From: Limibaculum sp.
GTDB taxonomy: Bacteria; Pseudomonadota; Alphaproteobacteria; Rhodobacterales; Rhodobacteraceae
Reading direction: 5' to 3'
Assembly (NCBI GenBank): GCA_039805905.1
Contig: JBDIVM010000006.1
Location: 120,827-184,826 of the forward strand
Length of the DNA stretch: 64,000 nt
Positions 37,704 through 53,177 of the stretch are shown here, piece after piece. Under the pieces are notes generated by a model, which did not search any database, had not been told where the DNA came from, and was given only the letters and a program-made list of their open reading frames with translations. The translations under genes and the position numbers were made by a program. Numbering within the stretch: the first letter of the stretch is position 1; each line of letters starts with the position of its first letter.

Positions 37704-40352
37704 TCATTCCTCCGGCAGCATCCCCCGGAGCTCATAGATCAGCTCCAGCGCCTCGCGCGGGGTCAAGTGATCCGGGATCACCTCCCTCAGCCGCGCCTCG
37801 GCGGCTGAATTCCTCGCCGGAGCTGCGGATTGCGTCACCCGCGCCTGGAACAGCGGCAACCCGTCGGTCAGCGCGGCGGCGCCGCCGCGCTCGCTCGCCT
37901 CGAGCCGCTCCAGCACCTCGCGGGCCCGCGCGATCACGCTCGCGGGCAGGCCGGCGAGCCGGGCCACCTGCACCCCGTAGGACCGGTCGGCCGCCCCGGG
38001 GCGCACTTCGTGCAGGAAGATCACCTCGCCCTCCCATTCGCGCACGGCGACGGTTGCGCAATGGAGGTTCGAGAGCCGCCCGGCGAGCGCGGTCAGCTCG
38101 TGGTAATGGGTCGCGAACAGGCCCCGGCAGCGGTTGACCTCGTGCAGGTGCTCGAGGGTGGCCCAGGCGATCGAGAGTCCGTCATAGGTTGCCGTGCCGC
38201 GCCCGATCTCGTCGAGGATCACCAGCGCTCCCGGCCCGGCCTGGTTCAGGATCGCCGCCGTCTCGACCATCTCGACCATGAAGGTCGACCGGCCCCGCGC
38301 CAGATCGTCGGCTGCCCCGACCCGGCTGAACAGCTGGTCCACCACGCCCAACCGCGCGTGCTCGGCAGGCACGAAGCTGCCGGTCTGGGCGAGGATCGCG
38401 ATCAGGGCGTTCTGGCGCAGGAAGGTCGACTTCCCGGCCATGTTCGGACCGGTCAGCAGCCAGACCGGCGCCGGGCCGTCGCCCGCCGCCGAGAGGTCGC
38501 AGTCGTTGGCGACGAAGCTTTCGCCCCGGCGCCTCAGCGCCTGCTCGACCACCGGATGCCGGCCCGCCTTGACCTCGAAGGCGCGGCCCGCCTCCAGCAC
38601 GGGCCGGGTCCAGCGCTCCTCGACCGCCAGCACCGCGTTGGCCGCCGCCACGTCCAGCGCGGCGATGGCGCGGGCCGCGGCGCCGATCTCGGCCTGGCGT
38701 GCCAGCACGGCGTTGCGCAGTTCGCCGAATATCCGCTTCTCGATCTCCAGCGCCCGTGCGCCGGCATTGACGATCCGGCTCTCGAGCTCGGAAAGCTGCA
38801 CGGTGGTGAAGCGCACCGCCCCGGCCAGCGTCTGGCGATGGATGAAGCTGCCCGAGAGCGGCGGCGACAGCATCCGCTCCGCGTGGCGAGCGGTCGTCTC
38901 GATATAGTAGCCGAGCACATTGTTGTGCCGGATCTTCAGCGAGTCGATCCCGGTCTCGGCCGCATACTCCGCCTGCAGCGCCGCGATCACGCCCCGCCCC
39001 TCGTCGCGGAGCTTCCGCGCCTCGTCGAGCCCGGCGTCGTATCCCTCCGCGACGAAGCCGCCGTCCCGCGCCAGCAGCGGCGGCTCGGCCACCAGCGCCG
39101 CCTCCAGCAAGCCGACCGTCTCCCCGTGACCGCGCAGCGCCGTGGCCGCCTCGGCGATCAGCGCCGGCAGATCCGCCGCCTCCAGCTCCGCGGCCATCTC
39201 GCCCGCCTGCGCCAGCCCCGCCCCTATCGCGGCCAGATCGCGCGGCCCCGCCCGGTCGAGCGCCAGGCGCGCCAGCGCCCGCTCGACCTCCGGCACCCGG
39301 CGGAGCCGCTCGCGGAGCGCCCCGGCGAGCTTCCGGTCCCCGGAAAGCCGCTCGACTGCATCGAGCCGCGCGCCGATCTCCACCACCCCGGTCAGCGGGG
39401 CGGCGAGCCGCGTCTCGAGCAACCGCGCGCCGGCCCCGGTCAGGGTCCGGTCGATCGCGGTCAGGAGCGACCCCTCGCGCGCGCCCGAGAGCGAGCGCGC
39501 CAGCTCGAGGTTCCGCCGCGTCGCGGCGTCGATCCGCATCACGCCGCCCGCCGCCTCGCGCCGCGGCGGGCGCATCAGCGGCAGCCGGCCCTTCTGGGTC
39601 AGCTCGATATAGTCAGCGAGCGCCCCCAGCGCCGCGAGCTCGGGCCGGGTGAAGCTGCCGAACGAGTCGAGCGCCGCCACCCGGTAGAGCGCCTTCAGCC
39701 GCGCCTCGGCGGCAGCCGAATCGAAGCTCGCGGCCCCGAGCGGCGTCGCCACCGCCCCGGCGTCCTCGATCTGCGCCATCAGCACGGGGTCCTCGAAGGC
39801 CGCGTCAAGCACCAGCACCTCGCGCGGGGCAATGCGCGCCAGCCCCGGCCCCAGCGCCGCCCGGCCGGTCTCGCTCACGCCCAGGTCGCCGGTCGAGACG
39901 TCGGCCCAGGCCAGCGCCCCCTCGCCCCTGACCTCGGCCCAGGCGGCGAGGAAGTTGTGCCGGCGCGCGTCGAGCAGCGTGTCCTCGGTCAGCGTGCCGG
40001 GGGTGACGAGGCGCACCACCTCGCGCTTCACCACCGCCTTCGCGCCGCGCTTCTTCGCCTCGGCAGGATCCTCCATCTGCTCGCAGACCGCGACCCGGAA
40101 GCCCTTGCGGATCAGGGTCAGGAGGTAGCTCTCGGCAGCATGGACGGGGACGCCGCACATCTGGATGTCCTCGCCCAGATGCCTGCCGCGCTTCGTCAGG
40201 GCGATGTCGAGCGCCGCGGCCGCCTGCACCGCATCGTCGAAGAACAGTTCGTAGAAATCCCCCATGCGGTAGAACAGCAGCGCGTCGGCGTGCGCCGCCT
40301 TGATCTTCAGGTATTGCGCCATCATCGGCGTGACGGCCGAAGAATCGTCCAT
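37704..40352 (-). CDS. mutS: DNA mismatch repair protein MutS
   Basis: [46 protein letters not shown]. Confidence 0.98.
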
Positions 40353-40499
40353 GCCGGCCTTCCGGATATGTCGCTGCCGCGGCCGCCTCGATAGCACGGC
40401 CCATGGCCGGTGGGGAAATCCCGCGTGCCGGAAAGGAATGCGGCTGCCCGGCCCCGGAATCCCGGATAATCCGGTTGCGACTCTCTGGCGCTTGGTGCA

Positions 40500-40511
40500 T
40501 GGTATACCACG
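40500..40511. promoter_or_regulatory. Putative GntR operator (copy 1)
   Basis: TGGTATACCACG palindrome 72 bp upstream of gntR; identical copy at 48059. Confidence 0.75.
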
Positions 40512-40582
40512 AACACCGGCGCACGGCTCTCAGCCGTCGGCATTGAATGCGGCGGGCATCGGCAGCTGATGGGGAGGAATGC

Positions 40583-41293
40583 ATGGGCAAGACCCTGGAC
40601 CTCAAGCCGGTGGATGGCTCCTTCAGCCTGAAGGAGCACATCTATGACGTGCTCAAGACCAGCATCATGGATCTGGACATCTACGAGCCCGACACCAACC
40701 TGCGCATGGACGAACGGACTCTGGCGGAGCGGCTCGGAATCAGCCGCACGCCGATCCGCGAGGCGATCATGCGGCTCGAGCAGGAGGGATTCGTCGAGAT
40801 CGCACCGCGCCGGGGCGTCTACATCAAGCGCAAGAGCCTCGACGAGATCCTCGAGATGATCACCGTCTGGGCGGCGCTCGAGAGCATGGCCGCCCGCATC
40901 GCCTGCGGGCGCGCGAGCGACGTCGAGATCGCCCGGCTCCGCCGGATCGCCGCACCATTCAACAAGGACAAGGCCAGGGCGCAGATCAGCGAGTACTCCG
41001 AGGCGAACATCGAATTCCACCTCTGCGTGCTCGGCCTCTCAGGGTGCCGGATGCTGCAGGACATTGCCAACGGGCTGTTCACCCACCTGAAGGCGGTGCG
41101 CCGCAAGGCGCTGCAGGACACCGCCCGTGCGGACCGTTCGGTGGTCGACCACATGAACATCATCCAGGCGATCGAGGAGCGGAATGCCGACCTCGCCGCC
41201 GAACTCGTCCGTGAGCATACGTTCCGGCTGCACGACTATATCCGCCGGAGCTGGAAGATGATCGTCGGCCCTGCCCAGGCGGGCGAGGCCTGA
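40583..41293 (+). CDS. GntR-family (FCD domain) transcriptional regulator
   Basis: [18 protein letters not shown]; C-terminal ANIEFH...DHMNII. Confidence 0.92.
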
Positions 41294-41325
41294 CGCCGGC
41301 ATTCGAGAATCAGGGGAGAAGACGC

Positions 41326-43065
41326 ATGGCAGTGGCACCGAGCATGGCGCCCGAACCGACCGCCGAGGCAACGCAGGAACTGACCGATGGGTTCCATCTG
41401 GTCATCGATGCGCTGAAGCTGAACGGCGTGAAGACGATCTATCATGTGCCCGGGATTCCGGTGACGGATCTCGGCCGCATGGCCCAGGCCGAGGGCATCC
41501 GGGTGATCTCGTTCCGACACGAGTCGAACGCGGGCAATGCCGCGGCCATCGCGGGCTACCTGACGAGGAAGCCGGGCATCTGCCTCACCGTGTCCGCGCC
41601 GGGGTTCCTGAACGGCCTCGTCTCGCTCGCCCATGCCACGACCAACTGCTGGCCGATGATCCTGATTTCCGGCTCCTCCGAGCGCGAGATCGTCGACCTG
41701 CAGAAGGGCGACTACGAGGAGATGGACCAGCTCGCCATCGCCAAGCCGCTCTGCAAGGCCGCCTACCGGATCCTGAAGGCCGAGGACATCGGCACTGGTG
41801 TGGCACGGGCCATCCGCGCCGCGGTCTCGGGCCGCCCGGGCGGGGTCTATCTCGACCTGCCGGCCAGCCTGCTCGGCCAGGTCATGGACGCGGCCGAGGG
41901 CGCAAAGTCGCTGGTCAAGGTCGTGGACCCCGCCCCGGCGCAGTTCCCGGCGCCGGCCGCCATCGAGCGGGTCATCGAGGTGCTGAAGAGCGCGAAGAAG
42001 CCGCTCATCATCCTCGGCAAGGGCGCCGCCTACGCCCAGTGCGACGACAGCGTGCGCCGCTTCGTCGAGACCTCGGGCATCCCCTATATCGCGATGTCGA
42101 TGGCAAAGGGTCTTCTCCCCGATGACCATCCGCAATACGCGGGCGCCGCGCGCTCGCTGGTGCTGGCCGAGTCGGATGTGGTCATGCTGATCGGGGCACG
42201 GCTCAACTGGCTCCTGTCGCACGGACGCGGCAAGCAGTGGGGCAGGCCCCACTCCAAGACTTTCGTCCACATCGACATCGACCCGAAGGAGATGGACTCG
42301 AACCAGCCCGTCGCCGCGCCGCTGGTGGGCGACATCGAGTCGTGCCTTGGCGCCCTGCTCGACAGGATGGGGCCGGGCTGGGCGAGGCCGCCCGCCGAAT
42401 GGACGGGCATGGTGCGCGAGAAGGCCGCGGCGAATGTCGCGAAGATGGCCCCGAAGCTCATGAACAACAACGTGCCGATGGATTTCCACGGCGCGCTGGG
42501 CCGGCTGAAGAAGATCATCGCCGATCACCCGGACGCGATCCTGGTGAACGAAGGTGCCAACACGCTCGACTTCGCCCGCTCGGTCATCGACATGGCGAAG
42601 CCCCGGAAGCGGCTCGATGTCGGGACATGGGGGGTGATGGGCATCGGAATGGGCAGCGCAATCGCCGCCGCGATCGAGACCGGCCAGAATGTCATTGCGG
42701 TCGAGGGCGACTCGGCCTTCGGCTTCTCCGGCATGGAGGTCGAGACCATATGCCGCTACGGCCTCCCGGTCTGCGTCGTGATCTTCAACAACTCCGGCAT
42801 CTACCGGGGCACCGACACCGACCCGACGGGGCGCGACCCGGGCACCACGGTGTTCGTCAGGGAATCCAGGTATCACATGATGATGGAGGCCTTCGGCGGT
42901 ATCGGGGTCGAGGCCCGCTCGCCGGACGACCTCGAACGGGCGGTGCGCGACGCCATCGCGTCCCGCAGGCCGACCCTGGTCAACGCCATCATCGACCCGC
43001 AGGCCGGGACCGAATCCGGGCGGATCGGCAATCTCAATCCGCAGAGTGCCGTCAAGAAGAAGTGA
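41326..43065 (+). CDS. oxc: Oxalyl-CoA decarboxylase
   Basis: [55 protein letters not shown]. Confidence 0.96.
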
Positions 43066-43126
43066 TCCGCCGCCGCGGCGCGTGGCGGCAGAAGAACAAC
43101 ATCCCTCAAGCGAACAGGGGAATGAC

Positions 43127-44401
43127 ATGAAAGCTCTGGAAGGCGTCCGGATCCTCGACTTCACCCATGTCCAGTCGGGCCCGACCTGCACCCAGCTCCT
43201 CGCCTGGCTCGGCGCCGACGTCATCAAGGTCGAGCGGCCGGGCGAAGGCGACGCGACTCGCAAGCAGCTTGTGGACGTGCCGGGGGCCGACAGCCTCTAT
43301 TTCACCATGCTGAACCACAACAAGCGGTCGATCGAGCTGAACTCGAAGAACGAGACCGGCAAGGAGGTCCTGACCCGGCTGGTCAGGGCCTGCGACGTGC
43401 TGGTCGAGAACTTCGCCCCGGGCGCCCTCGACCGCATGGGCTTCGGCTGGGAGGTGATCCAGAAGCTCAACCCGCGCATGATCATGGCCTCGGTAAAGGG
43501 CTTCGGCCCGGGCAAGTACGAGGACTGCAAGGTCTATGAGAATGTCGCGCAGTGCGCCGGCGGCTCTGCCTCGACCACTGGCTTCCGCGACGGCCTGCCG
43601 CTGGTCACCGGCGCCCAGATCGGCGATTCCGGCACCGGGCTCCACCTGGCGCTTGGCATCGTCGCTGCGCTGTTCCAGCGCGAGAAGACGGGCCGCGGCC
43701 AGAAGGTGCTGGCGGCGATGCAGGACGGTGTCCTGAACCTCTGCCGCGTCAAGCTGCGCGACCAGCAAAGGCTGGAGAAGGGACCGCTGACCGAGTACTC
43801 CCAGTTTGGCGAGGGCATTCCCTTCGGAGACGCGGTGCCCCGCGCCGGCAACGACTCGGGCGGCGGCCAGCCCGGCCGCATCCTGAAGTGCAAGGGCTGG
43901 GAGACCGATCCCAACGCCTACACCTACTTCATCACCCAGGCTGCGGTCTGGGAGAAGGTCTGCGACGTGATCGGCAGGCCCGAGTGGAAGACCGACCCGA
44001 AATTTGCCACCCCAAAGGCGCGGTTGCCGCATCTGAACGAGATATTCAGCGAAATCGAGAAATGGACCATGACCAAGTCCAAGTTCGAGGTCATGGACAT
44101 CTGCAATCCGCTCGATATTCCCGTCGGCCCGATCCTCAGCATGAAGGAGATCGCGGCGGACGAGGGGCTGCGGGCAACCGGCACCATCGTCGAGGTGGAC
44201 CATCCTGAACGCGGGCCCTACCTCAGCGTCGGCATGCCGATCAAGATGTCGGACAGCCCGGCCGAGGTCGTCCGCTCGCCGCTCCTCGGCGAGCACACGG
44301 TCGAGATCCTCTCAGGCGTTCTCGGCTACTCGGCCGAGGACATCGACCGGATCGCTGCCTCGGGCGCAGTCGGCGACATCCGGCGCGCCGCGGCGGAATG
44401 A
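43127..44401 (+). CDS. frc: Formyl-CoA:oxalate CoA-transferase
   Basis: [36 protein letters not shown]. Confidence 0.96.
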
Positions 44402-44495
44402 CCGGCGGCCGCGCGACTCGCGCCGGGCCGTACCGCACGGAACAGAACGAGCGCCGGCCGGGCCGGGCGCCAGAGAGAGAGGGAGGACAGGCGGC

Positions 44496-45416
44496 ATGCG
44501 CCTCATCGTCAACGGACAGCAGGCCTTCGGCAAGGCGGCACTCGAGAAGATCCTCGAGGCCGGCAGGGACGAGGTGGTCGGCGTCTACACCGCACCCGAC
44601 AAGGACGGCCGCCCCGTCGACCCGCTGAAGGAGGCCGCGCTCGCCCACGGCCTGCCGGTGTTCCAGCCGGCGAACTACAAGGACGGCGAGGCCCTCGACC
44701 AGATGCGCGCGCTGGACGCCGACCTGATGGTCATGGCCTACATGATCATCTTCGTGCCCGAGGAGGCGCGGAACGTGCCCAGGCTCGGCTCGATCTGCTT
44801 CCACCCGTCGCTCCTGCCGCTGCACCGCGGCCCGTCCTCGATCAACTGGCCGATCATCTGGGGTGCGACGAAGACGGGCTTCTCGTGGTTCTACCCGACC
44901 GACGGGCTCGACGAGGGCGACATCCTGATGCAGTGGGAGTGCCCGATCGGCCCGGACGAGACGCTGGGGGATGTCTATTTCAAGAAGATCTTCCCCGCCG
45001 GCGTCGACTCCGTCCTCACGGTCTGCGATCTCTTCCGCGCCGGCAACCCGCCGCGCGCGCCGCAGGACGAGTCGAAGGCGACCTACGAGAGCTGGTGCCG
45101 CAAGCGGGACGCCGCGATCGACTGGGCAAGGCCGGCAGCCGATGTCTACAACCTGATCCGGGGCTGCAATCCGCAGCCCGGCGCCTGGACGACGCTCGGC
45201 GGGGCCGAGGTCCAGGTCTTCGACAGCGCCCGCGCGGGCGAGGGCCCCGGCACGCCCGGCGAGGTCGCATCCGTGTCCGCGGATGGCGTGGTTGTGCAGT
45301 CGGGCGGCGGGCGAATACTTCTAAAACGTGTCCGGCCCGCGGGCGGGGGCAAGGTGCCCGCCGCGGAATGGGCTTCGGAGGCAGGGGTCGCCGCGGGCAC
45401 GCGGCTCGGCTCCTGA
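44496..45416 (+). CDS. Formyltransferase-family protein resembling the N-terminal domain of 10-formyl-THF dehydrogenase (ALDH1L1)
   Basis: [55 protein letters not shown]. Confidence 0.8.
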
Positions 45417-45448
45417 TGGCGCGGAAACACTACTCGGGGAAAATCTGC

Positions 45449-47116
45449 ATGTCGGACATCGAAATCGCCCGCAACGCAAACAAGAAGCCGATCCAGGAGA
45501 TCGGGGCAAAGCTGGGAATCCCCGGCGAGCATCTCCTGCCGTTCGGCCATGACAAGGCCAAGGTCTCGGCCGATTTCATTCAGTCAATTCAGGGCAACAA
45601 GACCGGCAACCTGATCCTGGTCACTGCGATGACACCGACCCCGGCGGGAGAGGGCAAGACCACCACTACCGTCGGCCTTGGCGACGGGCTCAATGCGATC
45701 GGCAAGAAGGCCGTGGTGTGCATCCGCGAGGCCTCGCTCGGGCCGAACTTCGGCATGAAGGGCGGCGCGGCAGGCGGCGGTTATGCCCAGGTGGTGCCGA
45801 TGGAGGATATGAACCTCCACTTTACCGGCGACTTCCATGCGGTCACCTCGGCGCACAACCTGCTCTCGGCGATGATCGACAACCACATCTACTGGGGCAA
45901 TGCACTCGACATTGACACCCGCCGGGTAGTCTGGCGCCGGGTGATGGACATGAACGACCGGGCGCTGCGCGAGATCGTCTGCTCGCTCGGCGGTGTGGCC
46001 AACGGCTTTCCGCGCGAAGCCGGCTTCGACATCACGGTGGCCTCCGAGGTGATGGCGATACTCTGCCTTTCCACCGACCTGAAGGACCTGCAGCAGCGCT
46101 TGGGCGACATCATCGTGGCCTACCGCCGCGATCGCTCGCCCGTCACCTGCCGAGACGTCAAGGCCGACGGGGCGATGGCGGTGCTCCTGAAGGACGCGCT
46201 GCAGCCGAACCTCGTGCAGACGCTCGAGAACAGCCCTGCCTTCGTCCATGGCGGCCCGTTCGCCAACATCGCCCATGGCTGCAACTCGGTCATGGCCACC
46301 ACGACGGCGCTGAAGCTCGCCGACTATGTGGTGACCGAGGCCGGGTTCGGCGCCGACCTCGGAGCCGAGAAGTTCTTCGACATCAAGTGCCGCATGGCCG
46401 GGCTGAAGCCGAAGGCGGTGGTGATCGTGGCGACCATCCGGGCGCTCAAGATGCATGGCGGGGTCAAGAAGGAGGATCTCGGCAAGGGGAACGTCGAGGC
46501 GCTGCAGAAGGGCTGCGCCAATCTCGGCCGCCACCTCGAGAACCTGAAGCAGTTCGGCGTTCCGGCCATCGTCGCGATCAACCACTTCGTTGCCGACACC
46601 GACGCCGAGATCGACGCGCTGAAGAGCTATGTGACGTCCCAAGGCGCCGACGCCGTGTTGTGTCAGCATTGGGCGAAGGGCTCTGAGGGGATCAAGGACC
46701 TTGCCCACAAGGTGGTCAGGCTGGTCGAGGCCAACACCTCGCAGTTCGCACCGCTATACCCGGACGAGATGGGCCTGTTCCAGAAGATCGAGACCATCGC
46801 CAAGCGCATCTACCGCGCCGACGAGGTAGTGGCCGACAAGAAGATCCGCGACCAGCTGAAGGAATGGGAGGAGGCCGGTTTTGCCGGGCTGCCGGTCTGC
46901 ATGGCCAAGACCCAGTATTCCTTCACCACCGACCCGAGCCGCCGCGGCGCGCCAACCGGTCACAGTCTGCCGGTGCGCGAGGTCCGGCTCTCGGCCGGCG
47001 CCGGCTTCGTCGTGGTGATCTGCGGCGAGATCATGACCATGCCGGGCCTGCCCAGAGTTCCGGCCGCCGAGACCATCTGCCTGAACGAGTCAGGCCAGAT
47101 CGAGGGCCTGTTCTAG
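45449..47116 (+). CDS. fhs: Formate--tetrahydrofolate ligase
   Basis: [50 protein letters not shown]. Confidence 0.97.
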
Positions 47117-47127
47117 GGAGATAGACC

Positions 47128-47988
47128 ATGTTGATCGCCCGGATCATGGTTCCCGTTCGCGGCGACGGCAAGGGAGAGAACGTCCTCTCCCACGCCGCCG
47201 CGGTCGCCCGGCGCCACAATGCCCATATCGAGGCAGTGCACTGCCGGGCCCGGCCGCAGGACATGATCCCCTACGGGGTCGTGGTCCCGCGCGCGCTCAG
47301 GGAGCAGATCGCGGCCCAGGCGGTCGAGCTTGCAGATGCCGAGGAGGCCAGGCTGCAGGGGATGTTCCGCGACCTGGTAGCGCGGCTCGGCATCGAACTG
47401 GTCTCGGACGGCATCCCGTCCCGCGACCGCCCCACCGCAAGCTGGCGCGAGGAGCAGGGCAAGCAGATGGACGTGATCCGGCGCCACGGCCGCCTCGCCG
47501 ACCTGGTGGCGGTGGCCAAGCCTGACCGCGACCGAAATCTCGGCCTCAACACCCTGAAGGCAGCGCTGTTCCATACCGGGCGGCCGGTGCTGGTCTGCCC
47601 GCCGGCGGACCGGGTGCCCGACCAGATCGGCCGGAGGGTCGCGATTGCCTGGAACGGCTCGACCGAGGCCGCCAGGGCGGTCGCGCTCGCACTGCCGCTG
47701 ATCCAGGCGGCAGACGAGGTGGTGGTGCTCGACGGTGGCGGCGAGGACGGTGCCGGCGGCGAGGAACTCATGCACTACCTCGCGATTCGCGGGATCGCGG
47801 CCCGCCGCGAGCGGATCGACGCGCAGAACCATCCCGGCCGGGTGATCCTGCAGGCCGCGGCGGCGGCCGGGGCGGATATCCTGGTGATGGGCGCCTACAG
47901 CCGCAGCCGCGAGCAGGAAACCGTGTTCGGAGGGGCAACCCAGCACGTGGTCGACCATATGACCATGCCGGTCGTGATGGTGCACTGA
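47128..47988 (+). CDS. Tandem-domain universal stress protein
   Basis: IAWNGSTEAARA, LVMGAYSRSR, GGATQHV. Confidence 0.88.
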   Translation: MLIARIMVPVRGDGKGENVLSHAAAVARRHNAHIEAVHCRARPQDMIPYGVVVPRALREQIAAQAVELADAEEARLQGMFRDLVARLGIELVSDGIPSRDRPTASWREEQGKQMDVIRRHGRLADLVAVAKPDRDRNLGLNTLKAALFHTGRPVLVCPPADRVPDQIGRRVAIAWNGSTEAARAVALALPLIQAADEVVVLDGGGEDGAGGEELMHYLAIRGIAARRERIDAQNHPGRVILQAAAAAGADILVMGAYSRSREQETVFGGATQHVVDHMTMPVVMVH

Positions 47989-48058
47989 AGCGGTTTTTTC
48001 CGTGCCGTGGCGGCGATCTCTGTTGATTTTTCACCCGCCGCTTATAGGATCAGGTGTG

Positions 48059-48070
48059 TGGTATACCACG
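48059..48070. promoter_or_regulatory. Putative GntR operator (copy 2)
   Basis: (G)TGGTATACCACG just downstream of a candidate TTGATT-N16-TAGGAT promoter (48023-48050) for tctC. Confidence 0.75.
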
Positions 48071-48209
48071 GGAAGGGGCTGCAAACGAAAAGAAGCAGAA
48101 CGCGGTCGGCAGTTCGATACTGCTGAACAAGACCCGCGGCAGGAGGAAGGGAACATCGGGTGTTCCGCCCCATCGCTGGGGAGCGTGCCATAAACCATGG
48201 GAGGATGAG

Positions 48210-49178
48210 ATGGCATTCACACGTCGATTGATGATGGCGGCAAGCGCTGCCGTAATCGGCTTCGCCGGGCTGACCGGCGTCGCACAGGCCTGGGAGCCGA
48301 CGAAGCCGATCGACTTCGTCATCATGGCCGGCCCGGGTGGCGGCGCGGACCAGATCGCGCGCTTCATCCAGTCTGTCGTCGAGAAGAACGGCATGTCGCC
48401 GCGTCCGCTGGTGCCGAACAACAAGGGCGGCGGGTCGGGCGCCGAGGCGCTGATCGCGCTGAAGGGTGCATCCGATCCGGATCACACGATCCTGGTGACG
48501 CTGAACTCGTTCTTCACCACGCCGCTGCGCCAGCCGAACCTCGGCATCGACATCATGACCTTCACGCCCATCCAGATGATGGGGGTCGATCCCTTCGTCC
48601 TCTGGGTCCACAAGGACTCGGGCATCACCAGCTTCGAGCAGTGGGTCGATACGGTGAAGGCCGAGGGCGGCAACTACGTGATGGGCGGAACCGGCAAGGG
48701 TCAGGAAGACTCGATCGTGATCGCCTGGCTCGAGAAGAACTACGACATCAAGGTCAAGTACATCCCCTACAAGGGCGGCGGCGCCGTGGCCAAGGATCTC
48801 GCCGGCAAGCAGGTGGGCGCGACGGTGAACAATCCGGCCGAGGCTCGCGGCTTCTACCAGTCCGGCGATGTCGTTCCGCTGATCGCGTTCTCGGACCAGC
48901 GGCTGCCGAACCTGCCGGACGTGCGCACGGTGAAGGAACTCGGCAAGGACTTCAGCTACTACAACCAGCGTGCCATCGTGGGCGCCCCCGGCATGTCGGC
49001 TGATGCCGCTGCCTTCTACCAGGATCTCTTCGGCAAGGTTGCGGCCTCGGCCGAGTGGCAGGGCTATCTCAGCTCCGAGAGCCTCGAGGCGCTGACGCTC
49101 GATCCCGAGCAGCAGAAGGCCTACTGGGCGACCCAGGTCGAGCGGCACAAGGAGCTGTTCAAGGACATGGGCGAGTAA
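48210..49178 (+). CDS. tctC: Tripartite tricarboxylate transporter substrate-binding protein (Bug/TctC)
   Basis: Signal peptide; GPGGGAD..AR, NKGGGSG, PYKGGG. Confidence 0.9.
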   Translation: MAFTRRLMMAASAAVIGFAGLTGVAQAWEPTKPIDFVIMAGPGGGADQIARFIQSVVEKNGMSPRPLVPNNKGGGSGAEALIALKGASDPDHTILVTLNSFFTTPLRQPNLGIDIMTFTPIQMMGVDPFVLWVHKDSGITSFEQWVDTVKAEGGNYVMGGTGKGQEDSIVIAWLEKNYDIKVKYIPYKGGGAVAKDLAGKQVGATVNNPAEARGFYQSGDVVPLIAFSDQRLPNLPDVRTVKELGKDFSYYNQRAIVGAPGMSADAAAFYQDLFGKVAASAEWQGYLSSESLEALTLDPEQQKAYWATQVERHKELFKDMGE

Positions 49179-49207
49179 GGACAGCCAATCCAGGGGAGGG
49201 CCGGCAG

Positions 49208-49732
49208 ATGCGTCGCGCTGAGATCATCACGGCCGGGGTGCTGGCCCTCTTTTCGCTCTACGTCATGTGGAAGGCCGGCCAGCCGGCATGGGAGGGTGTC
49301 GCCAGATGGAGCAACATCACCTATGTCAGCGGTGAAGGCCCGGGATCCGGCTTCTGGCCGTTCTGGCTGGCTGCCGTCATGCTGGGCTGCACGGTCTGGA
49401 TCGCCGTGAACTGGTGGCGGCGGGCCTCCCCGCTGTCGCGCTCCGGCGAGCGGTTCCTCGACGATCACGGCATAGGCATGCTGATCAAGGTCGGGGGCGG
49501 GGTCCTGGCGCTGATCGGGCTCAACCACATCGTCGGGATGTACGGCGCGATGGCGCTGTTCCTGTTCTACTACCTCTATTTCCTCGGCCGGCACCGGATC
49601 GGCCTGTCGCTCGCGATCGCGCTCGGGGCGCCGGTCGCCACGTTCTTCTTCTTCGATGTCGCGATGCGGATCGTGCTGCCGAAGGGCTATCTCGAGCCGC
49701 TCTTCATCCCGCTCTACGACATCTTCCTCTGA
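49208..49732 (+). CDS. tctB: Tripartite tricarboxylate transporter small membrane subunit
   Basis: Four TM segments; GPGSGFWP, LPKG; between tctC and tctA. Confidence 0.85.
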   Translation: MRRAEIITAGVLALFSLYVMWKAGQPAWEGVARWSNITYVSGEGPGSGFWPFWLAAVMLGCTVWIAVNWWRRASPLSRSGERFLDDHGIGMLIKVGGGVLALIGLNHIVGMYGAMALFLFYYLYFLGRHRIGLSLAIALGAPVATFFFFDVAMRIVLPKGYLEPLFIPLYDIFL

Positions 49733-49795: not shown

Positions 49796-51313
49796 ATGGA
49801 CATCCTCTCGCATCTGATCGATGGCATCCTGACCGCGTTCCAGCCGCTGAACCTGATGATAGTGATCATCGGGGTCACCATCGGCCTGATCATCGGCGCG
49901 ATGCCGGGGCTCGGGTCGGTCAACGGGGTCGCGATCCTGCTGCCGGCCACCTTCCTGGTGCCGCCGACGACGGCGATGATCTTCCTCGCCGCGATCTATT
50001 ACGGGGCGATGTATGGCGGCGCGATCTCGTCGATCACGCTCGGGATACCGGGAGCATCGACGGCGGTTGCCACGGTATTCGACGGTCGGCCGCTGGCGCT
50101 CCAGGGCAAGGCGGACAAGGCGCTGGTCGCGGCGGCGGTCGCCTCCTGCGTCGGCGGCACGGTGGCCAACATCCTGTTTACGGCCTTCGCTCCGCCACTG
50201 GCGCATGTTGCGCTGAGCTTCGGCCCGCCCGAGATCTTCGCGCTGATGCTGCTCGCCTTCGCCACCTTCATCGGCCTCGGCGGCGACGACATCCCGAAGA
50301 CCATCCTCTCGATCTGCCTCGGCCTCGTCCTCGCTACGGTGGGCTTCGACGAGATCTCCGGGGCGCCCCGTCTGGTCTTCTTCGAGATCACCGGCTTCAT
50401 GCACGGCATCAACTTCCTGGTTCTGGCGATCGGGGTCTATGGCATCGGCGAGATGCTGTGGACGATCAACGCGTCCCGCAACGACGTCTCGATGACCTCC
50501 GTCGAGATCGGCGCGCGCCGGATCGTGCTCGCGGCGAAGGAATCCTTCACCGCCTGGCGCGGCATGGCGATCGGCTCCTCGCTCGGGTTCTTCGTCGGCG
50601 TGCTGCCGGCGGCCGGTGCCACGCCCGGCGCGCTGATGGCCTACGGCCTGACCAAGATGACGGCGAAGAACCCGCAGAACTTCGGCAAGGGGGCGCTCAA
50701 CGGCGTGACCGCACCGGAATCCGCGAACAACTCGGCGGCCGCCGGCTCGATGCTGCCGATGATCACGCTCGGCATCCCCGGCTCGCCCACCACTGCAATC
50801 CTGCTCGGCGGCATGGTGATCTGGGGCCTGCAGCCGGGACCGCGGCTCTTCGCTGAGCAGCCCGAGTTCGTCTGGCCCCTGATCGGCTCGCTCTACGTCT
50901 CGAACCTGATGGCGATGGTGATGAACCTGGCGTTCATTCCGATGTTCCTGTGGATGCTGCGGATGCCGTTCACGATCCTCGCGCCGATGATCTTCGTGCT
51001 CTCGGTGGTTGGCGGCTATGCCGCGACGCAGGACATGCACGACGTCTGGCTGATGCTGATTTTCGGGATCGGCGCCTTCTTCCTCAGGATGCTCGACTAC
51101 CCCTTGGCGCCCGCGGTGCTCGCGATCGTGCTGGGCCCGCAGACCGAGGAGTCGCTGCGCCAGTCGCTGCTGATGAGTTCGGGCGATCCCTTGATCTTCG
51201 TCAGCCGGCCGATCGCCGGTCCGATCACCGTGATCGCGCTCATCCTGATCTTCCTGCCCCTCGTCGGCGTCATCCGGCGACGGCTCGGAGCAGGGACGAG
51301 GACGGCGACCTGA
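49796..51313 (+). CDS. tctA: Tripartite tricarboxylate transporter large membrane subunit
   Basis: GAMPGLG, YYGAMYGG, APESANN, LGIPGSPTTA. Confidence 0.95.
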   Translation: MDILSHLIDGILTAFQPLNLMIVIIGVTIGLIIGAMPGLGSVNGVAILLPATFLVPPTTAMIFLAAIYYGAMYGGAISSITLGIPGASTAVATVFDGRPLALQGKADKALVAAAVASCVGGTVANILFTAFAPPLAHVALSFGPPEIFALMLLAFATFIGLGGDDIPKTILSICLGLVLATVGFDEISGAPRLVFFEITGFMHGINFLVLAIGVYGIGEMLWTINASRNDVSMTSVEIGARRIVLAAKESFTAWRGMAIGSSLGFFVGVLPAAGATPGALMAYGLTKMTAKNPQNFGKGALNGVTAPESANNSAAAGSMLPMITLGIPGSPTTAILLGGMVIWGLQPGPRLFAEQPEFVWPLIGSLYVSNLMAMVMNLAFIPMFLWMLRMPFTILAPMIFVLSVVGGYAATQDMHDVWLMLIFGIGAFFLRMLDYPLAPAVLAIVLGPQTEESLRQSLLMSSGDPLIFVSRPIAGPITVIALILIFLPLVGVIRRRLGAGTRTAT

Positions 51314-51389
51314 GCCGGCACCGCCGGAACCCGACGGGGACTGCACGGCGCTGCCGCGCAGCCCCGGACGGTCCGAGGTGCAGCAGCGC

Positions 51390-52367
51390 TCAGACAGCCA
51401 GCAGGATCTTCCCCCTCAGCCCGCCGGCCTCCATCAGGCGGTGCGCCTCGGCCGCCTCGGCCAGCGGCAGCACCGTCTGGGTCACCGCCCGCAGCCTGCC
51501 CGCCGCGAACATCGGCCAGGCCCGCGCCTCGAGATCGGCCGCCACTGCCGTCTTGAACGCGTCCGGCCGCGGCCTGAGCGTCGAGCCGGTGAGCGTGATG
51601 CGCTTCAGCATCACCGGCATCAGATCGATCGCCACCTTCGATCCTGCCCGGAAGGCAAGCTGCACGATCCGGCAGTCCGTCGCCGCGGCCTTGAAGTTGC
51701 GCGCCACATAGTCGCCGCCCATGATGTCGAGAATCATGGAGGCCCCGCCCGAGGCCCGCACCGCCTCGGCGAAATCCTCCTCGCGATAGTTGATCGCCTG
51801 CTCCGCACCCAGCGATTCGCAGAATGCGCAGGACTCCGCCGAGCCCGCGGTCGCGAACACCCGCAGCCCCAGCGCCGCGCCGAGCTGGATCGCCGTCGAG
51901 CCGATTCCTCCACTGCCGCCATGCACGAGGAAGATGCTGCCGGGGGGCGGCGTGTGGCCGAAGAAGAAATTGCTCCAGACGGTGAAGTAGGTCTCGCAGA
52001 GCCCGCCCGCATCGACGAGACCCACGCCCGCCGGCACGGGCAGCACATGCCCCGCCTCGACCGCGACGTACTCGGCATAGCCGCCGCCCTTGGTCAGCGC
52101 GCAGACCTTGTCGCCCGCATTCCAGCGGCGGACCTCCTCCCCGACCGCAGCGATTTCACCCGAGATCTCGAGCCCCGGAAGGTCCGAGGCGCCGGGCGGC
52201 GGTGCGTAGAGCCCCTTGCGCTGCATCACGTCCGGCCCGTTCACGCCTGCCGCTGCAACGCGGATCAGCACCTGGCCGGCACCGGGCTCCGGCACCGGCC
52301 GTTTCGCCGGGCTCAGCACATCCGGCCCGCCTGGCGCGCGGATCTCGATCACCGTCATCTGGGCCAT
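51390..52367 (-). CDS. NADPH:quinone oxidoreductase (PIG3/zeta-crystallin family)
   Basis: AAGVNGPD..QRKG, PGLE, HGGSGGIG, GSTLRPR. Confidence 0.9.
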   Translation of the reverse strand: MAQMTVIEIRAPGGPDVLSPAKRPVPEPGAGQVLIRVAAAGVNGPDVMQRKGLYAPPPGASDLPGLEISGEIAAVGEEVRRWNAGDKVCALTKGGGYAEYVAVEAGHVLPVPAGVGLVDAGGLCETYFTVWSNFFFGHTPPPGSIFLVHGGSGGIGSTAIQLGAALGLRVFATAGSAESCAFCESLGAEQAINYREEDFAEAVRASGGASMILDIMGGDYVARNFKAAATDCRIVQLAFRAGSKVAIDLMPVMLKRITLTGSTLRPRPDAFKTAVAADLEARAWPMFAAGRLRAVTQTVLPLAEAAEAHRLMEAGGLRGKILLAV

Positions 52368-52499
52368 GGCGCTCCCCCCTTCGTTGAAATCTGCCGGGGT
52401 TCCGGTGTAATCGCCGCCGGGGCGGGCTGCAATCGCGGCCCGGCCCGCGATGCGGAAACGCCCTGCCGGCAAACGGTCCGGCGCCCACCGACGAGGCCG

Positions 52500-53177
52500 A
52501 TGATGAGCGACCGGACCGCCGCCGACCTTCCCCAGACTGCTCCGCTGCCGGGATACCTGGTCGATCGCTATCGCGCCTGGCACGGCCGCAGTTTCGTCGA
52601 GAACCGCGCCTGGTATGCCCGCCTCGCCGCCGTGGGCCAGCGGCCCCGCGCCATGGTGATCTCCTGCTGCGACAGCCGTATCGACATCGTCCAGATGTTC
52701 GCGGCCGAGCCCGGCGACCTCTTCGTGCTGCGCAGCGTCGCCAATCTGGTGCCGCCCTTCAGCCCCGACCCGAAGCATCACGGCACCTCGGCAGCGGTCG
52801 AATACGCGGTCAACGTGCTGAAGGTCGCCCATATCGTGGTCGTCGGCCACTCGCACTGCGGCGGCGTCCAGGCCTGCCACGACATGTGCGCCGGTCTCGC
52901 CCCCGAACTCGAGGAGAGGTCCAGCTTCATCGGCCGCTGGATGGACATCCTGCGCCCCGGCTACGCGCATGTCGCGGCCATGGTGCCCGAGAGCAGCGCC
53001 CGCCGGTCGGCGCTCGAGCACGAGGCCGTGCTGACCTCGCTCCGCAACCTCGGCACCTTCCCCTTCGTCGTCGAGGCGGTGGCCGAGGGCCTGCTGACGC
53101 TCCACGGCGCTTTCGTCGAGATCGGCACCGGGGCGCTGCTGGCCTATCGCGACGGCCAGGGCTTCACGCCGGTCTGA
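52500..53177 (+). CDS. Beta-class carbonic anhydrase
   Basis: SCCDSR, GDLFVLRSVANLV, HSHCGG. Confidence 0.93.
   Translation: MMSDRTAADLPQTAPLPGYLVDRYRAWHGRSFVENRAWYARLAAVGQRPRAMVISCCDSRIDIVQMFAAEPGDLFVLRSVANLVPPFSPDPKHHGTSAAVEYAVNVLKVAHIVVVGHSHCGGVQACHDMCAGLAPELEERSSFIGRWMDILRPGYAHVAAMVPESSARRSALEHEAVLTSLRNLGTFPFVVEAVAEGLLTLHGAFVEIGTGALLAYRDGQGFTPV

Follow-up and report, generated by a model that had tools for sequence, protein, structure and literature searches.

A palindrome at oxalate and formate promoters of Limibaculum sp. is a probable operator of the local GntR regulator

Does a short motif that recurs before a regulator gene and before a transporter gene in an alphaproteobacterial oxalate locus mark a common regulon and, if so, which genes does that regulon hold? 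The question is raised by 64,000 nucleotides (nt) of Limibaculum sp. (assembly GCA_039805905.1, contig JBDIVM010000006.1, forward-strand positions 120,827 to 184,826), a stretch that we call the window at its full length. The 12-mer TGGTATACCACG occurs exactly at 40500-40511, between the minus-strand mutS and the plus-strand gntR, and again at 48059-48070, between usp and tctC. Sequence matching bears out the preliminary description of this DNA, which had reported an exact repeat at two intergenic positions. That description also called the 12-mer palindromic, which it is not: the symmetry is limited to the 10-mer core TGGTATACCA (TGGT-AT-ACCA). Copy 2 widens to a perfect 12-bp palindrome, GTGGTATACCAC, at 48058-48069; copy 1 reads ATGGTATACCAC and equals it at 11 of 12 positions. 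Common to both copies are GGTG at 6 to 3 nt 5' of the core and the 3' CG of TGGTATACCACG, the latter not conserved at other sites. With up to two mismatches to TGGTATACCACG allowed, the window contains six matches, against 0.89 expected from shuffles; four of the six come from the two sites, each counted once per strand.

The answer that we consider quite likely is that TGGTATACCA is the operator of a repressor, the local GntR protein, which would govern four oxalate and formate units; we infer binding, the sign of regulation, the promoters, and the effector. Two of the units begin in the window. Putative operator 1 (40500..40509; neither operator is assigned a strand) has a weak flanking GGT box at 40493-40495 and is centred 78 nt 5' of the gntR ATG, and putative operator 2 (48059..48068) lies 8 nt past a candidate -10 element, its centre about 146 nt 5' of the tctC ATG. 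Alignment of 28 sites gave the extended symmetric consensus GGTnTn-TGGTATACCA-nAnACC.

The assembly (18 contigs, 3.85 Mb, 68.7% GC, 100% complete) is referred to as G000; other G numbers denote genomes of relatives, C a contig, and L a locus. It contains TGGTATACCA four times, in each case in an intergenic region and 40-150 nt 5' of the start codon of an oxalate or formate gene. The copy number alone is unremarkable, as 320 palindromic 10-mers of the same composition average 1.26 copies and 10% of them have at least four; it is the placement, not the count, of TGGTATACCA that is remarkable. The third copy (contig C4) stands 41 nt 5' of the ATG of a gene for a fused NuoE/NuoF-type protein (fdsB-like), and the fourth (contig C7) 56 nt 5' of the ATG of fdhA, the formate dehydrogenase alpha-subunit gene, whose product passes the TIGR01591 equivalog with 748.4 bits (cut-off 666.25). 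Both genes are single-copy in this genome. In relatives G105, G096, and G095 they are adjacent, the fdsB-like gene followed by fdhA, sometimes inside the oxalate cluster. The four copies thus precede genes of a single route, from oxalate via oxalyl-coenzyme A (CoA) to formyl-CoA or formate and on to CO2 or formyl-tetrahydrofolate.

A 22-nt matrix, built solely from 14 foreign gntR-proximal sites and then run over this genome, ranks the fdsB-like site first genome-wide, tctC second, gntR fourth, and fdhA twelfth. Other hits of the matrix were rejected as coding (an asnB-like gene) or as a different palindrome, and one-mismatch copies of the core, 5' of a fadB-like gene and within an acetyl-CoA-synthetase-like gene, were set aside as weak candidates not tied to the regulon. 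Of the ten FCD-type paralogues that the genome encodes, the oxalate-locus protein alone has such a site, one mismatch allowed, 5' of its gene.

Of 150 genera of the same family that were searched, 14 have a gntR orthologue (47-66% identity); the evidence given here is all sequence comparison, in which related genomes are non-independent samples. The core lies 40-200 nt 5' of gntR in all 14 of these other genera and has at most one mismatch in 13. The G107 site is in a weaker arrangement and farther from the gene. As mutS adjoins gntR only in this genome and in none of the 14 others, the site follows gntR and not mutS. G105, G070, G110, and G097 each have a single exact copy of the 10-mer genome-wide, the one at gntR. 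The gene order gntR-oxc-frc-formyltransferase-fhs-(usp)-tctCBA is kept in at least eight genera, and several departures from it are informative. In G084, fhs lies outside the cluster and has an exact site of its own 47 nt before it. An exact site in G095 separates an orf-fdsB-fdhA operon from a divergent operon of sucC-like, sucD-like, and Zn-dehydrogenase-like genes; one in G050 precedes a sucCD-like operon, divergent from gntR, with the Zn-dehydrogenase-like gene third; and one in G008 stands before a TctC-like gene and a bicupin gene. In G105, fdsB-fdhA stand inside the operon, after fhs. A putative operator that travels with relocated genes is the pattern that a regulon predicts.

Two features of these relatives deserve mention in their own right. 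The TctC-like protein at the G008 locus (L069:3654-5870; G008:C274) is 29% identical to the TctC of the window, and the accompanying bicupin is made up of two Cupin_2 domains; a protein 64.5% identical to it is encoded at C2:823638-824567 of the present genome, where the operator is missing and a further FCD-type GntR gene lies about 5 kb away. In G105 (L019 2213-3904), G016 (L025 2204-3895), and G079 (L028 16084-17718), the gene in the oxc position encodes a protein only 24% identical to Oxc and hence a different thiamine-diphosphate enzyme; all three nevertheless keep frc, fhs, and the operator.

Outside the family, a profile search with one genome per species yielded 35 orthologues of at least 42% identity, from Bosea, Bradyrhizobium, Methylorubrum, Methylobacterium, Ancylobacter, Cupriavidus, and Paraburkholderia and from hyphomicrobial, xanthobacterial, and gammaproteobacterial metagenome-assembled genomes (MAGs). 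Nearly all (32/35) adjoin oxc or frc. Within 330 nt 5' of gntR there is a site with at most one mismatch in 21 of the 35, and with at most two in 29. Sites with at most one mismatch number 36 in these distant loci, and 25 fall in the 340-nt intervals upstream of gntR, which make up 2.2% of the sequence and where 0.25 would be expected; the enrichment is about 100-fold. The predicted regulator-operator pair recurs across many Proteobacteria. The preliminary description had advised both phylogenetic footprinting and a genome-wide scan; the former finds the motif at gntR orthologues inside and outside the family, and by the latter it is rare and confined to promoters of one pathway. Neither of the two sequence-based refutations named in that description was therefore borne out. 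The regulon drawn there, of the two units in the window, is supported, but it overlooked the two formate dehydrogenase operators.

The sites are also placed consistently with respect to candidate promoters. That of the gntR operon (40475..40503, plus strand) consists of TTGCGA (40475-40480), a 17-nt spacer, and CATGGT (40498-40503), so that the operator's first 4 nt fall within the -10. The candidate internal promoter of tctC (48023..48050, plus strand) comprises TTGATT (48023-48028), 16 nt, and TAGGAT (48045-48050), with copy 2 just past it. Both had been proposed in the preliminary description, and both have counterparts elsewhere. In 9 of 15 gntR promoters, one per genome, TTG at -24/-25 from the core (-27 in G003) is followed by TATGGT as the -10. 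The motif usually overlaps a conserved TTGnnn-N16/17-TATGGT promoter, and at most other sites a TTG at about -19 places the -10 inside the operator. At tctC of the closest genus, G003, TTGACA-N17-CTAATC lies at the same offset from the operator. Putative operator 2 covers the predicted tctC start region, and operators over a -10 or start region would argue for repression by promoter occlusion together with autoregulation.

In the mechanism that we propose, a dimer of GntR would bind the palindrome TGGTATACCA and, because this overlaps the -10 or the transcription start region, would block RNA polymerase at four promoters. One would be GntR's own, that of the gntR-oxc-frc-formyltransferase-fhs-usp operon, entailing autoregulation, and another the internal promoter for tctCBA; the remaining two would serve the gene for the NuoE/F-type diaphorase subunit of an NAD-dependent formate dehydrogenase (C4) and that for its alpha subunit (C7). 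The repressor would be freed when its FCD domain binds a small carboxylate from the pathway, for which oxalate is the likeliest candidate, ahead of oxalyl-CoA, formyl-CoA, and formate. The outcome would be joint induction of uptake, CoA-dependent oxalate decarboxylation, and formate disposal or assimilation. For oxalate as the effector we would put the chance a little short of even; a CoA thioester is possible but doubtful, and formate or glyoxylate is unlikely. Metal-assisted carboxylate binding is known for FCD domains, and three histidines of GntR that are invariant in 14 orthologues, H146, H190, and H212, would be compatible with it.

That tctCBA belongs to the oxalate regulon, as was first suggested from the two copies in the window, is well supported: gene order is conserved, operators stand ahead of tctC in lineages that are not related, and OxlT is absent from the genome. 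Of the seven other genera with tctC in the cluster, only G003 shares the tctC-proximal operator. In its tctC spacer, the block TCAGGTnTG-TGGTATACCA and a -35/-10 pair are found at the same offset, and the TCAGGTnTGTGGTATACCA block at tctC is common to this genome and G003 amid an otherwise diverged spacer. Farther afield, the exact site immediately precedes tctCBA-oxc-frc in a Hyphomicrobiales MAG; in a gammaproteobacterial MAG, tctCBA has a site with one mismatch in front of it and gntR-frc beside it; and in an Acidiferrobacteraceae MAG, tctCBA abuts the gntR operator. An OxlT-type antiporter was not found in this 100% complete genome, the best match scoring 62.7 bits against a cut-off of 335. 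From this context (the operator, synteny in several orders, and no OxlT), TctCBA is a candidate oxalate importer. A terminator scan of 40300-48300 revealed only a weak terminator-like hairpin at 48003-48015, and read-through from usp into tctC is therefore possible; an Rfam scan of the 150-nt tctC leader gave no match (best ar14, E 0.78).

Several observations weigh against an operator of the local GntR repressor. Six of the seven other genera with tctC in the cluster are without the tctC-proximal operator, and this absence would make the tctC site a recent, lineage-specific addition; in those six, transcription from the operon promoter presumably extends into tctCBA. A strict sigma-70 scan of 40300-48300 gave no consensus promoter, and the promoters described above are weak matches. 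Some exact copies of the core in relatives have unrelated contexts, by chorismate synthase, iclR, and an impB-family gene; these were judged to be due to chance or to be sites of other regulators. Distant GntR paralogues in G050 and G107 (26-28% identity) carry the exact core 5' of their own genes, and thus the core alone does not identify its binder. It is also the case that some FadR-subfamily proteins activate transcription.

These points bear on three other explanations. The palindrome could be real and yet bound by another factor, be it one of the nine other FCD paralogues or an unrelated protein, with the local GntR recognising something else. The number of such paralogues in the genome, the distant ones in G050 and G107 with the same core, and the similarity of recognition helices across the GntR family would all allow it; however, the motif co-occurs with orthologues of this very gntR in 14 of 14 family genera and 21 of 35 distant genomes, whatever the upstream gene, and the genome's other paralogues all lack a site with one mismatch or fewer 5' of their genes, which makes a different binder highly unlikely. 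We regard it as quite unlikely that the local GntR binds but is an activator or a dual regulator at some promoters, for instance those of tctC and fdhA. FadR does activate at fabA, the promoters are predicted only, and a second promoter-like element lies 62 nt 5' of the fdhA operator, but at nearly all sites, over 15 genomes, the operators overlap the -10 or the start region, a geometry typical of repression and one that an activator would seldom use. Finally, it is barely credible that a short AT-rich palindrome, such as a restriction-type site containing GTATAC, is repeated in the window by chance or without regulatory function: a count of four is normal, as the comparable palindromes attest, but each of the four copies precedes a gene of the same pathway, sites are strongly enriched 5' of gntR orthologues, the offset to the -35 is conserved, and a matrix trained on foreign sites recovers them. 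The probable operator of a local GntR repressor remains our preferred reading.

The regulator itself is a 236-amino-acid protein (gntR, 40583-41293, plus strand) with a GntR winged helix-turn-helix and an FCD domain. Its start at 40583 is preceded by the ribosome-binding site GGGGAGGAA, and public contigs call the same 236-amino-acid start. The N-terminal domain matches PF00392 with 53.7 bits (cut-off 27) over residues 29-93 of the 248-amino-acid open reading frame (ORF), and the C-terminal FCD domain matches PF07729 with 84.6 bits (cut-off 24.3). By both domains and by the type of its putative operator, the protein is assigned to the FadR subfamily (FCD type). It falls below the cut-off of every named NCBIfam equivalog (PhnR_burk, NanR, LldR, CsiR, PdhR, UxuR, ExuR, GlcC, and FadR), the best named match being PhnR_burk (TIGR03338; 114.4 bits, cut-off 271.5), and it belongs to none of the named FadR-subfamily orthologous groups tested.

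The gene upstream, mutS (37704-40397), is on the minus strand, whereas those downstream are all on the plus strand as far as tctA. Both oxc (41326-43065; TIGR03254, 970.8 bits, cut-off 739.4) and frc (43127-44401; TIGR03253, 710.9 bits, cut-off 504.2) are identified at the equivalog level. They are followed by genes assigned by Pfam: an Fmt-like formyltransferase (44496-45416; Formyl_trans), fhs (45449-47116; FTHFS), and usp (47128-47988; Usp). The transporter genes are tctC (48210-49178; PF03401 TctC, 86.5 bits), with a signal peptide encoded from the ATG at 48210, tctB (about 49200-49732, the start not being fixed; PF07331 TctB, 55.8 bits), and tctA (49796-51313; PF01970 TctA, 464.5 bits). 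The receptor TctC and the membrane subunits TctB and TctA are thus encoded together, as a tripartite tricarboxylate transporter (TTT) set. Beyond them, a plus-strand ORF of 599 amino acids (51378-53177) was dismissed as spurious; the real genes there are a minus-strand gene for a 325-amino-acid Zn-dehydrogenase/quinone-oxidoreductase-like protein (51390-52367) and a plus-strand gene for a beta-carbonic anhydrase (from 52501). Inspection by eye of 52368-52500, 5' of the Zn-dehydrogenase-like gene, revealed no operator-like site. This gene accompanies the oxalate cluster in G003, G044, G096, G050, and G095, and two gammaproteobacterial MAGs have a linked counterpart at 39-40% identity.

Other sequence elements were noticed in passing. 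A 13-bp palindrome, CCGGATAATCCGG, at 40462-40474 of the window adjoins the candidate -35 of the gntR promoter and is single in the genome. The 13-mer TTTTCACCCG[C/G]CG occurs only twice in the genome, at 48028-48040 of the window and at G000:C7:194523 (L002 ~3939-3951). Both copies are 5' of an operator, those of tctC and fdhA, with ATAGG(A/T)T following 2-4 nt after each, and the element is without counterpart in the G003 tctC promoter. It is a second element common to two promoters of the putative regulon, either a promoter core or the site of another factor. A one-mismatch site, TGGTATGCCA, ranked sixth by the matrix, lies between mdh and sucC (G000:C7:33015; L033:3016), and its right flank, CATACCA, is that of the consensus; a weak candidate, it might bring succinyl-CoA synthetase into the regulon or else serve a different regulator of the FadR type. 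The third-ranked site, TGGCATACCA, also with one mismatch and with a GATGCC flank, is between genes for an nhaA-type antiporter and an isochorismatase-family protein (G000:C3:337758; L032:2759); it has no evident link to oxalate and is a weak candidate. In the G000:C8:179145 region, another FCD paralogue has a distinct palindrome twice 5' of its own gene (TGTTATAACA and TGCTATAACA, 24 nt apart), which is probably its own operator.

How does the proposed system compare with known ones? Operators of the FadR subfamily consist of TKGT/ACMA boxes, with GT and AC 2-3 nt apart and weaker extra half-sites 7-12 nt from the centre, and the class with a 2-nt spacer includes the GntR, UxuR, HypR, HpxS, MdcY, and PrpR orthologous groups (Suvorova et al. 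2015, PMC4494728). Our case resembles this class in that TGGT-AT-ACCA fits TKGT/ACMA, flanking half-sites lie about 7 nt out, the protein has a winged helix-turn-helix and an FCD domain, and its gene heads its presumed operon; moreover, MdcY and PrpR govern the catabolism of short carboxylates or dicarboxylates, as is proposed for this GntR. Unlike the regulons described for these groups, the one predicted here holds oxc, frc, fhs, tctCBA, and formate dehydrogenase. The repeat unit of NanR, the sialic acid regulator of E. coli and also of the FadR subfamily, is TGGTATAW (PMC4494728). The half-site TGGTATA equals it, and NF003011 matches the FCD part weakly (70.7 bits, cut-off 260), but NanR recognises direct repeats, whereas here the two half-sites at the centre form an inverted repeat, between symmetric flanking GGT boxes. 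The closest solved structure by sequence is PDB 7xp0/7xp1, a 218-amino-acid 'Probable transcriptional regulator' (residues 15-218, E 2e-19). In this comparison of sequences, H146, H190, and H212 align with histidines; the similarity is low, however, and N142 corresponds to an Asp there. A literature search for the code 7XP0 returned no relevant paper.

The same marker enzymes, Oxc and Frc, are found in the acid-response cluster yfdXWUVE (oxc/frc) of E. coli and under pH-dependent control in lactic acid bacteria. Control of yfdXWUVE by EvgAS/YdeO and the pH effect in lactic acid bacteria are indirect acid-stress controls, with no known dedicated pathway-specific repressor. The arrangement proposed here differs in having a local one-component regulator with a defined putative operator, which would also cover transport and formate oxidation. 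Regulation of oxc and frc, which serve as markers of oxalotrophy, has been described as understudied, with pH the known signal and no dedicated regulator named (2024 review, PMC13409138). Our literature searches turned up no report of oxc/frc being under a GntR regulator, of a transcription factor that responds to oxalate, or of oxalate binding by a TctC.

The proposed mechanism, a FadR-type repressor on a palindrome over a promoter, is conventional; the regulon it would control is undescribed and, by the comparisons above, broadly conserved. A wider view, which we put forward tentatively and would call possible rather than probable, is that this GntR is the first example of an undescribed and widespread type of proteobacterial oxalate sensor-repressor, binding oxalate at an FCD metal site and coordinating uptake, Oxc/Frc, and formate oxidation or assimilation; that TctCBA is the first TTT oxalate transporter, a substitute for OxlT in aerobic oxalotrophs; and that the sucCD-like CoA ligase and the Zn-dehydrogenase-like protein, as recurrent additional members of the regulon, mark an unrecognised branch of oxalyl-CoA metabolism. 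Were the regulator and operator paired as we propose, they would be a ready part for an oxalate biosensor. For the biology of these bacteria, the proposal would mean that a one-component regulator and a 10-bp operator are conserved from Rhodobacteraceae to Bradyrhizobium, Methylorubrum, Cupriavidus, and gammaproteobacterial MAGs; that a candidate importer of the TTT family may serve oxalate uptake in a genome without OxlT; and that a single regulon would join oxalate decarboxylation to formate dehydrogenase and formate-tetrahydrofolate ligase.

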